NCBI GenBank assembly: GCA_964016885.1
Contig: OZ024742.1
Coordinates: 66,154,001 to 66,218,000, forward strand
Reading direction: 5' to 3'
DNA: 64,000 bases
Origin: Eledone cirrhosa
Taxonomy: Eukaryota
Of the stretch, positions 3,757 through 55,988 are shown piece after piece. The notes beneath the pieces were generated by a model, which did not search any database, was not told the DNA's origin, and saw only the letters and a list, made by a program, of their open reading frames with translations. Made by a program: the position numbers and the translations under genes. How positions within the stretch are numbered: position 1 is the stretch's first letter; each line of letters opens with the position of its first letter.

Positions 3757-3801
3757 GCTTACAATTGTTTCATCGAAACCGAGGCTTGGGTGCTTCGGAG
3801 C
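3757..3801 (-). ncRNA. Degenerate type I hammerhead (U4C core)
   Basis: RC: gct CCGAAGC ... GAAA caattg TA agc; A9 mutated; homolog of 45797-45841. Confidence 0.45.
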
Positions 3802-4766
3802 ATTTTTCAATGTTTGTATACATACATGTCCTCCTTTCCAACGCAAGAGACATACAGATGCATATGTATATATTGATGTACAGTGGGGTGACATATATTA
3901 TTTCTAAATGGCAATTTAAATTCAAAAATTAAAATCATATTAAAACAGAAACAAAGCAAAATTAAAATTAAAATACAACATCGGCAGTTAACGTAGATAA
4001 TGCAAGAGGATAGTTTGTTAGTCAGTTGTAGTAGTTATTGTATGCATTAGTTACACGTGGGGCATGCATGTGTGTCTTATTTATATCTGATTATTGTGCG
4101 ACAGGGTGTTATATGCAATACAAGCACTTTAAGCGGGTAATCAAGAGTATTATGGAGTGGTAAGGTATTTTTTGTGTATGATAAAGAAGCTTGTGTGCAG
4201 AGAAATAGTATAAATGAGAAGCAAAATAATGTTATGGTTTTTGTATACACCACCATTTTTACAATTCAGGAAACGTAATATATAGTTTATATGTCCTTCA
4301 CATAATTAACGATGATTCCGTATTGGATGTTTGATGTATTAAGTTAAATTGTTTTAGCTTGTTGCGGCTCAGTGTTCTTTAATCCAATTTTATAGAGCAG
4401 GTTGTTTCTGTTGCGAGAATTTACATCGTTTTATTATCCGGAAGTATGTGTGTGATTAAGGGGAGTTAATGCGTGAGGGAGGTAACTAGCTGATTCTATA
4501 ACTAAATTTATTAATCCAACATACATTAAAAGGTGTCTCAATTGAGTCCCTTATATATACGGTTATATGCAGTTACCAGATTTAAGTATCCTATCTTTAA
4601 TTACAGTCTACTCTATCATGAAGTATTAAAGGTACCTATATTAGAATGATTACTCCCTATCATAGAGTGCTACAACTGAATATTCCATACGAAGAGTCAG
4701 CTCTACATATCAAAGTTCTTTGTAAATGTAGTCTACTCACAGAACCTGTCAGGGGCCCTATTAGAA

Positions 4767-4868
4767 CCATGTCTATATAACCCCTGTTAAGCTCTGGGTC
4801 AGCGTATGGCTGATTAACCATGTCTATATAACCCCTGTTAAGCTCTGGGTCAGCGTATGGCTGATTAC
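4767..4868. repeat. Exact 51-bp tandem duplication
   Basis: accatgtctatataacccctgttaagctctgggtcagcgtatggctgatta occurs twice in tandem. Confidence 0.92.
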
Positions 4869-6563
4869 ATGGCAAAGTTAAATATCGCTAGTGTAGACCA
4901 AAAAACATTTCTCACTTACAATGTCATTAATCTATCTATCAAGTTATACATGTATGTATAACTCACATACCACTTATACATAATTCATTGTACTCAATAT
5001 ATAGGTTATACAGCTCTTATATGTTAATAAATTAATCCTCTATTTATCTAATGATAGCACTCCATACATACAACAACATTTGCACAAATAATACATTGCT
5101 GAATTCGGTGTCTAAAGTTTACATATAATTATATAGTGATATAATACAGTCTAAGTAATTGAAAGTAATTATACTAAAAGTAGGTGTACATGGGGATATT
5201 TCTAGGGTAAAAGGTTTTAGATAGATGGCACGAATTGTGTTAAGATAGGGTGGATCATTGAGTGTGGAGTTGTGGTGTAAGGTGTGCCCTTGAGGTGTGT
5301 TGCTAGAAGTGGTGATGGGTTCAAGCCTGACATTGCTATATATTGGGTTTAAAGTTTTGGAAGGAGTGTCGGAAGCGGTGCTGGCATGACGCGAACACTT
5401 CCGATTTTTTTATTAAGGAGGTTATGTTTGAGAAGATAATTGTATGGGTCTCTAGTAGACACATATATATATATATATATAAAAATATATATATGAATAT
5501 ATATAAATATATATATGAATATATATATATATATATATATATATATATATATATCCATATAAATATATATATATGGGTGTGTGTGTATGTGTGTGTGTCT
5601 ATGTGGTGTGTATATATTTGTATGCATATATTATACGTCGATTGCCGGAATTAGTAGACTGTGCTTTGTGTGTATTTGCATATGTTTTTTTTTTTATAAT
5701 TGTGTGAATGTTTGCATCTCTGCTTGATTTTGGGCAGCTGTGTGTGGGAATGTTGATGTTATATGTCTATGTGTGCTTACCTATGTCTGTATATGTATGT
5801 ATCTGAAAGTATGTATGAATGTATGATTATATGCAAACTCTCTCTCTCTCACTCTTTCTCTGTGTATGATTTTATATATATATATATATATATATATATA
5901 TATATATATATATATATATATATGTATGTGTGTGTGTGTGTGTGTGTGTGTGTGTGTGTGTGTGTGTGTGTGTGTGTGTGAGCGTGTGTATATGTCTACT
6001 TATGTACATTTGATAGCTATAATAGTAATTCAATTTATTGATACATACAATCAACATGTTGTATTTCACCTGAAGCTCTATTCATCTCTCAAGAGGTTTT
6101 CTCCTTTATCTTAAAGTTTAAATTGTCTGAACTTACTCTCTAGAGAGAAGGCTCTACATGTTCATACTCTCTACTAGATCTAACAGTCAAATCTTAAGAT
6201 CCTACACTTAATTTGTTTGATATAAGTTAAGATACGTTTATAACTTCCTCGCCATAAAAGTGTTTGTTACATTCGTTAATTTTGCTGTGATTTTATGTTA
6301 CATCTTTGTGTGAAAAATACCTCCTACAATGCTAGGTGATAAAATAGTTAAGGGTAATGTTAAAAAGATTAAGAAGTCTATGACGTGCAATAAGATGAAA
6401 TAAAAAAAAAAATCAGCACCAATGAACATCGTTAAATTTCTAGTATTTCGACTGTAATAGTGAAAATATTTTCATATGTTTGTAGTGTCACATATTTGTA
6501 AAACCCATGACTGCATTAAATGTGTGTCTAGAGAAAAGGTTATAGAATCTAGTCTACAGAAAT

Positions 6564-6707
6564 AATTGTTTCTACTTTTGGCACAAGGCCAGCAATTACC
6601 CAGTGCATTGCTGGTACTTTATTTTATCGAACCCGTAAGCATGAAAGGCAAAGTTAACCTCGGCGGGATTTGAACTCAGAATGGCAAGGGCCGTAACTCT
6701 ATGCGTC
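6564..6707 (-). mobile_element. tRNA-derived SINE with Meta-type central domain
   Basis: RC has B box GAGTTCAAATCC, core GCCTTTCAT..GGTxCGATAAAATAAAGTACCAG and tail CCTTGTGCCAAAAGTAGAAACAATT. Confidence 0.85.
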
Positions 6708-7068
6708 TAATATGCATGAAATGACACTGACTATATGAGTATTAATTTAGGACTGTGATGCCTTATATCTTAATAAAACGTTACAACCTCAAGAATCTTA
6801 AGTTCAGGTGTTAATTGACGATGGTTGATAGGACACATGAAAAAAACTAATGAATGAAAGAAGTTGTAACGATGACCGTGTCATATACTGTGAATAAACC
6901 ACCGTTTTCTGAAAAAAAAAAAAAAAAAAGGATCTACGCTCACAAGAGTGCCAGCCAGATGCCACAATATAACCGTTTCAACGACAGTCTCACCAGGAAA
7001 TATACAACGAAGAGGGTAAAGGAATAGTAATTTATGAATTAAAATATAAAGGTAATGGCCATAGCATT

Positions 7069-53675: not shown

Positions 53676-53685
53676 ATAATAATAA

Positions 53686-53870
53686 TAATTGTTTCTACTT
53701 TTGGCACAAGGCCAGCAATTATCCCAGTGCATTACTGGTAGTTTATTTTATCGACCCAGTAAGGATGAAAGGCAAAGTTAACCTCCGCGGAATTTGAACT
53801 CAGAATGGCAAGGGCCGTAACTCTATGCGTTAAAACATAGCGTCCGACCCTCTACCGATTCTGCCAATCC
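53686..53870 (-). mobile_element. Meta-type SINE
   Basis: Family head, core and tail. Confidence 0.88.
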
Positions 53871-54579
53871 TAATAATAATAATAATAATAATGATTATTT
53901 TCTTGTATTTTTCAATCGCAAAAAGCGGATTTCCTAGCAAACTACAATATAGAATCTGATTTTGTGTTAAAAATGCAATTAGATAATGTAATAAAGAATA
54001 CACAATTTAACAGACACAAATACAAACATAATAAACTGAATCTTCTGTAGGTAGCCATGTAGAGAAGTAATATTTTCTTGCGCAGTTACAGAAAAACATA
54101 AGAATATATATATATATATATATATATATATAATGATAATAGTGAGTAGAATCGAAGTTGCAGCTGCGATCGATACCATTTTTCGAAATCAATCTTCAGA
54201 AGCTGGCACGAAGCTCTAAATGAGATGATAATACAAACAGGTTAAAGACGTACTTGGACCTAAATGATAGATAATATATAAATATCTTCGACTGGTTTCT
54301 GGGAAATCGAAAGCTACACTCCCACTTGCGTAATATGTAAGTCAGTAATGTATCCGAAGATGGAACTAGGATATACTTTTCTGAAGAAAAGAAGATTCAC
54401 ATCCGGATTTTGGTGGCCAAATTCAAAATTGTGAAAAAGGCATCTATTCATAGCCTCCAGGTAAGCTCTCGACTATGTTATCAAACAAACAATAAATAAT
54501 TAATCAATTAATTAATCACTTACTTAATTATATAGATTACATTTATTATATATATATATATATATATATATATATATAT

Positions 54580-55025
54580 ATAAGAACAAAAGATGGTTAA
54601 AAGAGTTCCATGTATTTTATTCTGCGCATTTCAAAAACAAATATCATCATGCAATATTATTTGTGTTTTCATGAGATAAAACAGGAAGACAGGATATGAA
54701 GGTTAAAAAAACACTTGTGGATAGTTCAGTTTTAAATCAACGTATATTAAATCAACTGATATTAAATATATGTTGATTTAAAACTGAACTATCCACAAGT
54801 GTTTTTTTAACCTTCATATCCTGTCTTCCTGTTTTATCTGATGAAAACACTAATATTATTGTATGATGATATTTGTTTTTGAAATGCGCATAATAAAATA
54901 CATGGAACTCTTTTAACCATCTTTTGTTCTTATATATTATGTATACTCCAGTCCTACAAACTGTAGAGTGCTTCTTATCCGATATCTGCATTGCTTTATT
55001 GTACTACAATAAAACTCACCTCCTA
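54580..55025. mobile_element. Fold-back pLTR-type unit, family B copy 2
   Basis: ~170-bp arms ~54580-54748 and ~54763-54935 with a short spacer, plus the shared 3' tail. Confidence 0.85.
54832..54898 (+). ncRNA. Type I hammerhead ribozyme
   Basis: ttttat CTGATGA aaaca..tgttttt GAAA tgcgca TA ataaaa; the mirrored left-arm copy has core mutations. Confidence 0.82.
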
Positions 55026-55438
55026 CACATATATATATATATATATATATATATATATAATAAATGTAATCTGAGTTATTCGAATAACATTCGATTCCTT
55101 TGCAATTTTGCAATATATATATATATATATATATATATATATATATATATATATATACATACATATATATATATATTATATATATATATATATATATACA
55201 GAGATATCCACGGTAAGTCGTGGGGTCTAGTCTGCATTGCTTTTGACAACAGCTGGTGATATGCATGTAAGTAAATATTCTCCTTATCTGATATTTTGTA
55301 ACTAATCTTATATAGATATCGATAACGAAGTATAGTTACGGTGTATTCTCATCACCTAGAAACGATCGTAAAGCAGTGAAGTATATCTCTAATGACTTGA
55401 TTCTTTATTTCATTGTTTTAACTTATATATATATGTAT

Positions 55439-55988
55439 AATAAATCTAATCTGAGTTTTTCGAATATTATTAATAACATTCGACTCCTTTGCAATTTTGC
55501 AAACAAGCCTCAATTTTATAGCCATGTCACTAGAATGAACACTTCATTCTTGCTCTTGTGTTGGCTTGCGAACAGAACTGCAGACACTAATGTTTCTGGG
55601 TATCACCATTCATCAGTACATCTCACTGTTCACCTGCCATACTGTCAGAGCTAGTGAAAATATATGCTATTTTCAAAAATATAAAATGACTGATCGGCCA
55701 GACTTAGCAGACTGGCTGATCAGTCAGATCTGCATATTAGAAGATTCACTGATCAGCCAGATTTGCATATCAGCAGACTGGCCATTCAGTTTCCTGTATA
55801 CGAGCGATAAATGGCCGGCTTTGCCAAATTCAAATAAAAAAGAAAACTTTGCTCTACATGGCTGAATACAATAAATGTAATCTGAGTTTTTCGAATATTA
55901 ATAATAACATTCGATTCGTTTTAAATTTTGCAAACAATCCTCAATTGTATAGCCATGTCACTAGAATAAACACTTCATTCTTGCTCTT
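55439..55988 (-). mobile_element. Retrozyme-like non-coding unit: 119-bp direct repeats, period 431, one HHR
   Basis: 55439-55557 similar to 55870-55988; partial third copy 55059-55113; internal self-complementary block 55690-55790. Confidence 0.72.
55579..55620 (-). ncRNA. Type I hammerhead with GUC cleavage triplet
   Basis: RC: tgta CTGATGA a tgg-tgatac-cca GAAA cattagtg TC tgca. Confidence 0.85.

Follow-up and report, generated by a model that had tools for sequence, protein, structure and literature searches.

The window analysed here, a 64-kb stretch of Eledone cirrhosa DNA (GenBank assembly GCA_964016885.1, contig OZ024742.1, positions 66,154,001 to 66,218,000) from a 3.0-Gb genome of 1796 contigs, is AT-rich and contains 84 runs of (TA)6 or longer and a scatter of short motifs shaped like type I hammerhead ribozymes (HHRs). 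As judged by core, helices, the 3-8 pair and compensatory change, these motifs are putative type I hammerhead ribozymes. We propose that they lie in the pseudo-long terminal repeats (pLTRs) of about 12 families of Penelope-like elements (PLEs) and in two short derivatives lacking an open reading frame (ORF), with 3′ ends at (TA)n, a reading to which we assign a probability of roughly 0.88. The copies of these families are truncated, often inverted fragments abutting (TA)n. Families are given letters below, and labels such as L414 denote loci (copies) fetched from the same genome; comparisons with published work refer to the accessible parts of the cited sources.

Site-by-site inspection found a type I hammerhead-shaped motif at all 17 coordinates where the original prediction had placed one, and the sites sort into about 11 sequence groups, close to the roughly ten families it had named. 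They represent 15 insertions, since 9309/9517 and 26866/27067 are inverted arm pairs. Nine window copies have an intact canonical core, three carry family-wide core variants, four are damaged and one is weak, so that some are degenerate, as had been expected. The canonical core and all helices are intact at 9309, 9517, 14656, 26866, 27067, 44462 and 54832. These copies are: family A, as the left (9309–9363, −) and right (9517–9571, +; H17 at 9566) arms of the inverted pLTR pair 9255–9625; family A2, as the left (26867–26919, −) and right (27067–27121, +) arms of the pair 26817–27170; family B (14656–14712, −), with a TGCGCA helix III, a partial inverted arm at 14785–14855 and a tail; family F (44462–44542, −), with a full helix III of 5 bp, unlike the minimal palindromic type; and family B2, an inverted pair at 54583–54930 (+) with an intact HHR at 54830–54900 (+) and a broken core in the other arm. 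At 9917 (family C, 9918–9959, −) and 55579 (family H, 55575–55624, −) the canonical core is intact and the stems are weaker.

The U3-A8 core (UUGANAA) is found at 15090 (family K, 15090–15127, −) and 26411 (family J, 26411–26458, +), and in 12 of 12 copies of each family. Family D (45797–45841, +; GAGA-capped stem II) has a U4C core (CCGAUGA), with CCG in 19/20 family copies. The damaged copies are those of family L (3757–3801, −; A9>C, in a U4C family whose core is CCGAAGA), the old family I (25308–25394, −; G12>C, in a family that mostly reads GAAA and whose copies are 72–89% identical), family E (44016–44056, −; stem I, CCGAG/CTCGG in the family) and the B-related HHR-like motif at 42286–42358 (−), which has TACGTA, an inverted arm at 42400–42507 and an A·A mismatch as its opening stem I pair. 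The minimal HHR-like motif of family G at 46474 (46473–46504, −) is weak across the whole family, with a 2-bp stem I and a helix III without loop. One additional hammerhead, absent from the first list, has its core at 15932 (family M, 15927–15965, +; GTAC helix III). CUGAUGA sequences at 8510, 9032 and 15310 were rejected as type I HHRs because the downstream sequence offers no GAAA/UH fold; they fall in a TA-flanked repeat (8443–8636; 8965–9158, −; 15282–15381, +) in which GAAA lies upstream and no type I fold forms, and which is possibly a half-core or permuted remnant. An Rfam scan of the window gave no hammerhead family among the 150 of 173 matches listed.

A comparison with dinucleotide-shuffled sequence had been named beforehand as a check, and the expected excess was found: a strict type I descriptor run on the window gave seven matches (9309−, 9517+, 14656−, 26867−, 27067+, 44464− and 54830+) against a mean of 0.025 (maximum 1) in 200 local dinucleotide shuffles. 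A broad descriptor, tolerating an extra base 3′ of A9, a 10.1-11.1 mismatch and a bulged stem I, returned nine CUGANGA matches and one UUGANAA match, with 0 and at most 1, respectively, in 20 shuffles. We also searched a systematic genome sample of 80 evenly spaced 10-kb stretches (800 kb in total), which covers the large contigs, leaves out small ones and does not capture families with weak stems, among them 45797 and 26411. Its 82 raw matches group into 32 clusters, a few of which are fortuitous.

Within this sample the 3-8 pair is kept: there are 63 CUGANGA and 16 raw UUGANAA matches, against two of the mismatched CUGANAA and one of UUGANGA. About eight of the UUGANAA matches are genuine, after dropping six UUGAAAA matches because they belong to a satellite (L261) and two loose matches (L063, L065). 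Helix III is a perfect palindrome in 28 of the 63 canonical matches, although palindromy is not a descriptor requirement; counted over even short inserts, the figure is 28/46 against 9 expected, and over distinct inserts 9/18 against 3.5. The short palindromic stem III foreseen by the original prediction is therefore common but not universal, the full helix at 44462 being an exception. In family C (9918–9959) and a sister family (11 sequences) the core is invariant and the flanks have diverged, and two-sided changes occur in 3 of 12 stem pairs; the covariation that had been anticipated is thus present, in this one group only. Stem cells are paired in 96% of cases, against 18–43% in slid controls, a figure that is not a probability, the 11 sequences being related. 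Covariation of the 3-8 pair and compensatory stem changes show that the predicted fold was under selection in the source lineages.

The carrier elements are visible in longer copies. Families A, C, D, G and J have an ORF with reverse transcriptase (RT) and GIY-YIG domains on the same strand 5′ of the HHR, as in L412 for the right-arm family A motif and in L409 and L410 for family G, and family B has a same-strand GIY-YIG with RT remnants. In the window, a 5′-truncated ORF at 10209–11213 (−), encoding an RT thumb and GIY-YIG with a CX4CxxC linker, is followed about 245 nt downstream by the 9917 motif and has inverted pLTR ends around it (9710–9862 and 11099–11251). It went undetected in a Pfam scan of the window and was called GIY-YIG from motifs together with RT-bearing copies. 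In L414 (family D) the arrangement is pLTR-ORF-pLTR with a period of 3537, plus an inverted arm; partial tandems of pLTRs with an inverted 5′-truncated arm are seen in L414 and L403. Inverted arms occur at 13/30 loci of family A, 9/12 of K and 25/45 of H, and at none of the F or G loci examined. No upstream PLE ORF was found for families E, F, H, I, K, L and M.

The predicted tie between minimal HHRs of PLE pLTR type and RT/GIY-YIG ORFs is thus borne out, in six families. The accompanying description of the load as mostly non-coding stands in that most copies are 5′-truncated, non-coding pLTR fragments, but only the units at 44462 and 55579 proved to be ORF-less, and the claim that the elements are invisible to ORF annotation is overstated: six families reside in coding PLEs, which a repeat annotation should pick up. 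The window also contains TA-flanked inverted pairs in which no HHR was detected (31077–31363, 42920–43463, and 11300–11357 with 43784–43841); they are probably the 3′ ends of pLTRs whose truncation point lies 3′ of the ribozyme.

Motifs allow provisional typing of the coding families. A CxCx5C linker is present in families A, B and D (L404–L407, L412 and L414), ADKT (DKT motif) in L414 of family D, and CIH/CQH (CxH after the endonuclease (EN) core) in L404–L407. The CxCx5C linker and DKT are features of Hydra elements (Craig 2021, PMC8557442), and we label A, B and D as putative Hydra-type PLEs on these motifs. An N-terminal RWK motif was not found in the broken Hydra-type copies; the D unit is 3537 bp long. 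Families C, J and G have a CX4CxxC linker before GIY-YIG (CTNRKCIIC, CGRPNCGIC and CSRPRCNTC, respectively), and by motif they would be of Neptune/Nematis type, the two clades not being separated. The coding families do not resemble Naiad, which is defined by an N-terminal endonuclease and the lack of a canonical HHR: here the endonuclease lies at the C-terminus and HHRs occur. A protein search returned 15 relatives, none giving a clade name.

Next to (TA)n, the distribution of the motifs is strongly one-sided. (TA)5 occurs within 300 nt downstream of 15 of the 17 sites, as had been claimed for most of them, and upstream of 6/17, compared with 24% of random window positions; in the genome sample, the 200 nt downstream contain (TA)4 for 84% of matches, while random positions drawn from these stretches give 36%. 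Complete element 3′ ends are directly followed by TA in 199 of 329 cases (60%; background 7%), and by inspection those without adjoining TA mostly run into the element's own tail. At SINE (short interspersed nuclear element) junctions, used as a control, TA adjoins 4/78 and 4/52. We consider (TA)n a likely pre-existing insertion target. The converse, that (TA)n is mainly made by the element through slippage or tail synthesis at a TA-ending 3′ terminus, is improbable; element 3′ ends do close in ...TA, and TA is found at 60% of 3′ ends and only 14% of 5′ ends, but solo truncated copies also have TA directly on their 5′ side (F 14/36, G 6/10), and (TA)n insertion is known for Hydra and Naiad (Craig 2021, PMC8557442). 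The abundant SINE-like repeat of the window (about 190 bp; 6561–6707, 16450–16636, 42046–42236 and about 15 more) has ends that are TAA-rich, not TA.

The 5′ ends of the copies do not clearly pile up at the cleavage site, H17, and the whole, uncleaved motif is kept in most copies. Among unselected copies starting within 60 nt of it, 4/39 start at −1 and other offsets are about equally frequent. Elsewhere in the elements of some families, at fixed positions, we found patches that are prone to error. In family L (about 3789–3792 in the window copy; offset −33 from H17), the three bases from A9 on show 14 alleles among 83 exact-flank matches genome-wide; 40/83 deviate from the majority, or 22/83 should the second allele represent a subfamily, whereas a control triplet in stem II deviates in 4 among the first 100 of 121. 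Patch length is unchanged in 84/86. The patch differs between the arms of 4/13 nearby inverted pairs, so the errors likely arise per RT pass. In family F, 35 copies show 24 alleles at a site 97 nt 5′ of H17 (44558–44564 in the window), which varies in length and includes one A-tract. The position of the L patch also stands out, less strongly, in family D. Scans of families A, B, C, G, H and J gave no comparable non-homopolymer error peak. At the F junction (44551–44560, −) the sequence continues with TTAGGGTTA in one subfamily and TTTTGGTTA in another; the former is telomere-repeat-like, probably by chance.

Many copies share one fixed start in family E (43990–44062, −; L134–L144), and also in B and K. 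In E it lies 6–7 nt 5′ of the core, and the resulting solos, located between TA runs, measure about 80–135 bp; query bias contributes to this pattern. These fixed starts may mark the RNA 5′ end.

Families F and H differ from the others in their short units. The F unit has a period of 627–633 bp at seven loci (in the window, a partial tandem of the ~630-bp unit at 44211–44890, −), and the H unit 424–441 bp at ten loci (a partial tandem of the ~435-bp unit at 55436–55988, −); the locus sets of D, F and H partly consist of re-fetched loci. Both units contain short frames only, with no PLE protein match. Two H cores lie 436 nt apart in L184, paired cores were not found in the three F loci checked, and no long multimers were seen within 3-kb loci. 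From sequence, we regard F and H as putative retrozyme-like, non-autonomous units, ORF-less derivatives, and metazoan non-LTR (long terminal repeat) retrozymes have been proposed as PLE derivatives (Cervera 2020, PMC7229834; bioRxiv 10.64898/2026.07.22.740005). They share with those retrozymes a short non-coding tandem unit and a type I HHR. They differ, as far as the available descriptions go, in being known from DNA and in having mostly partial tandems, PLE-style tails and TA junctions, and the F unit (630 bp) is longer than the usual 150–450 bp.

These two families are what best favors the view that the load consists mainly of classical non-LTR retrozymes, spread via RNA circles that form by ribozyme cutting and re-ligation and are joined at the cleavage site. 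In addition to their short ORF-less tandem units and the paired H cores, helix III of F is predicted to be monomer-competent, and there is a weak excess of family H 5′ ends at H17 (3/30 selected, 3/50 unselected), as a degree of cleavage in vivo might produce. However, six families are coding PLEs, no long multimers appear in the 3-kb loci, the hypervariable junctions of F and L lie away from H17, at the offsets given above, and the TA-flanked starts of H are scattered over many offsets, with 3/36 at H17+1 (among the first 100 of 479 matches). Free folding of one F copy favored a non-active stem II (−20.5 vs −11.0 kcal/mol), so monomer activity is unsupported by folding alone. We judge this alternative unlikely for the load as a whole.

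The motifs are a genome-wide background and not a local array, contrary to the very dense array originally described; the large genome-wide load that accompanied that description holds. The sample contains 63 canonical-core matches in 32 of its 80 stretches, against 0, 1 and 0 in three shuffles and 1–3 for control cores, from which we estimate about 236,000 canonical-core motifs genome-wide (bootstrap 154,000–337,000; extrapolated from 800 kb). A special local cluster with a locus-level function is very improbable: the window, with nine canonical-core matches, is about 1.8 times denser than the genome average (mean 5 per resampled 64-kb set), but 13% of such sets attain nine, first-look candidates number 61–2461 per searched family and are spread over all large contigs (the genome search covered the sequence families, excluding 42286), and across the sample the match count follows TA-run density (Spearman 0.50). 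Chance matches in AT-rich repetitive sequence, as the six satellite matches in L261 and the 2-bp stem I at 46474 might suggest, are a negligible explanation, given the shuffled and control counts and a core that is invariant across diverged sister families.

Several observations weigh against placing all the motifs in PLE pLTRs at TA targets. Families E, I, K, L and M and the 42286 motif have no direct tie to an ORF, L being connected only via its likeness to D; the clade labels come from motifs and not from a tree; and the covariation set comprises 11 related sequences, 10 of them chosen by descriptor. On the 5′ side, TA adjoins only 38/263 ends (14% vs 7%), which does not fully settle target versus added tail. 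A clear error patch is present in just 2 of 9 scanned families and is weak in D, and the H 5′-end excess at the cleavage site also counts here.

Based on these observations and on published PLE work, we propose the following course of events for the PLE families. The GIY-YIG endonuclease would nick TA repeats, and RT would initiate inside the element RNA, in a target-primed, internally initiated reaction. Early truncation with fold-back would follow, and self-cleavage would be weak or protein-assisted, and partly dimeric, by analogy with the systems described. Cleavage at the ribozyme site probably does not occur in the copied RNA, whose end likely coincides with the fixed error-prone patch. 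There, RT would add untemplated bases at the RNA 5′ end and switch template to complete the pLTR, a step to which we give even odds; alternatives for the patch are a misread modified base, a misread ligation junction or many source copies. Errors at template ends occur in LTR elements and in R2. Most genomic copies would be dead passengers.

A bolder interpretation, which we put forward tentatively and hold to be rather doubtful, joins these points: at about 80 per Mb, the genome would have the densest animal hammerhead load counted so far, and the copies in it would record the missing step of PLE transposition. In some families the 5′ end would then lie inside the ribozyme, just past the catalytic core, and LTR-style strand transfer after untemplated addition would complete the pseudo-LTR. 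The upstream ribozyme would be transcribed as a half, the template would not be delimited by cleavage, and PLE hammerheads, which typically have an extra base after A9, may carry it as a scar of the jump.

The pLTR-hammerhead arrangement of PLEs has already been published (Cervera 2014; Craig 2021), and earlier work describes (TA)n targeting as well as pLTR hammerheads of minimal form, their pairing on opposite strands and the U3-A8 variant. The present finding is a new, very large instance of that system, to which the load and the error patch are additions. Published minimal pLTR hammerheads resemble those described here in having many consensus families per genome, an unpaired base 5′ of stem II, a palindromic helix III, opposite-strand pairs 100–700 bp apart, mostly solo truncated copies, and the U3-A8 core (about 1,300 in S. 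mansoni). They differ in number, about 2,000–9,000 per genome against about 2.4 × 10^5 here, with another descriptor. The family-wide U4C core and the error-prone patch are found here and go unmentioned in the published account as far as it was available; its supplements may include U4C or similar variants.

The axolotl genome is about ten times larger than this one. Metazoan retrozyme papers report hammerhead counts of 126,247 in axolotl and more than 6,000 in coral, and counts for PLE hammerheads are about 2,000 plus 1,300 in S. mansoni, 4,000 in coelacanth and 9,000 in X. tropicalis. Our estimate exceeds these published counts and the load appears unusually high, a comparison that is indicative only because the descriptors differ. 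A literature search that covered few subscription papers found no description of such a load or of the error-prone patch.

The coding families agree with Hydra and Neptune/Nematis EN+ PLEs (Craig 2021, PMC8557442) in their C-terminal GIY-YIG, DKT and canonical HHR, in their linkers (CxCX5C in A, B and D; CX2-5CxxC in C, G and J), and in their tandem and inverted structure, 30–40-bp tail and (TA)n insertion. Hydra, unlike the families here, is described as having few families, generally <3 kb; here copy number is high and the D unit measures 3.5 kb. The Anolis Poseidon PAc protein nicks AT-rich DNA in vitro and initiates reverse transcription at an internal position of the RNA, hence the tails; insertion does not require its HHR, which is assisted by protein, and no reads were found to end at the HHR cleavage site (Frangieh 2024, PMC11167929). 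The elements described here agree with this in their AT-rich target, a presumed internal RT start, the uncleaved motif kept in most copies and the lack of 5′ ends clearly piled at the HHR site. The Poseidon PAc account, as far as it was available, contains no pLTR-completion step, and the error patch may mark that step.

Two other retroelements lie in the window. A broken non-LTR element at 59219–62572 (+), which we take to be R4/Dong-like, has RT, CCHC and a restriction-like endonuclease motif, with related fragments at about 20826–21231 and 53010–53374. A long interspersed nuclear element (LINE) at about 46650–49682 (−), presumably RTE-like, has APE-RT with an RVT_1 match, and a Twister-P1-like ribozyme at 49629–49682 (−) forms its exact 5′ end (Rfam 28.7 bits, below gathering). 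In 20 of 20 fetched copies the shared sequence breaks off close to where twister cleavage is predicted, a parallel to the S. mansoni Perere-3 T-variants, which are described likewise. This LINE provides an internal contrast to the PLE hammerheads, since its copies start at the predicted cleavage site.

Both the retention of hammerheads by PLEs and the way in which pLTR tandems arise have been named as open questions (Craig 2021; Frangieh 2024). The fixed error-prone patch yields an exact, testable prediction for the RNA end. With an estimated 150,000–340,000 canonical-core motifs, this genome would serve as a large natural collection of mutated hammerheads, offering U3-A8 and U4C variants, 10.1-11.1 mismatches, and full as well as minimal helix III.

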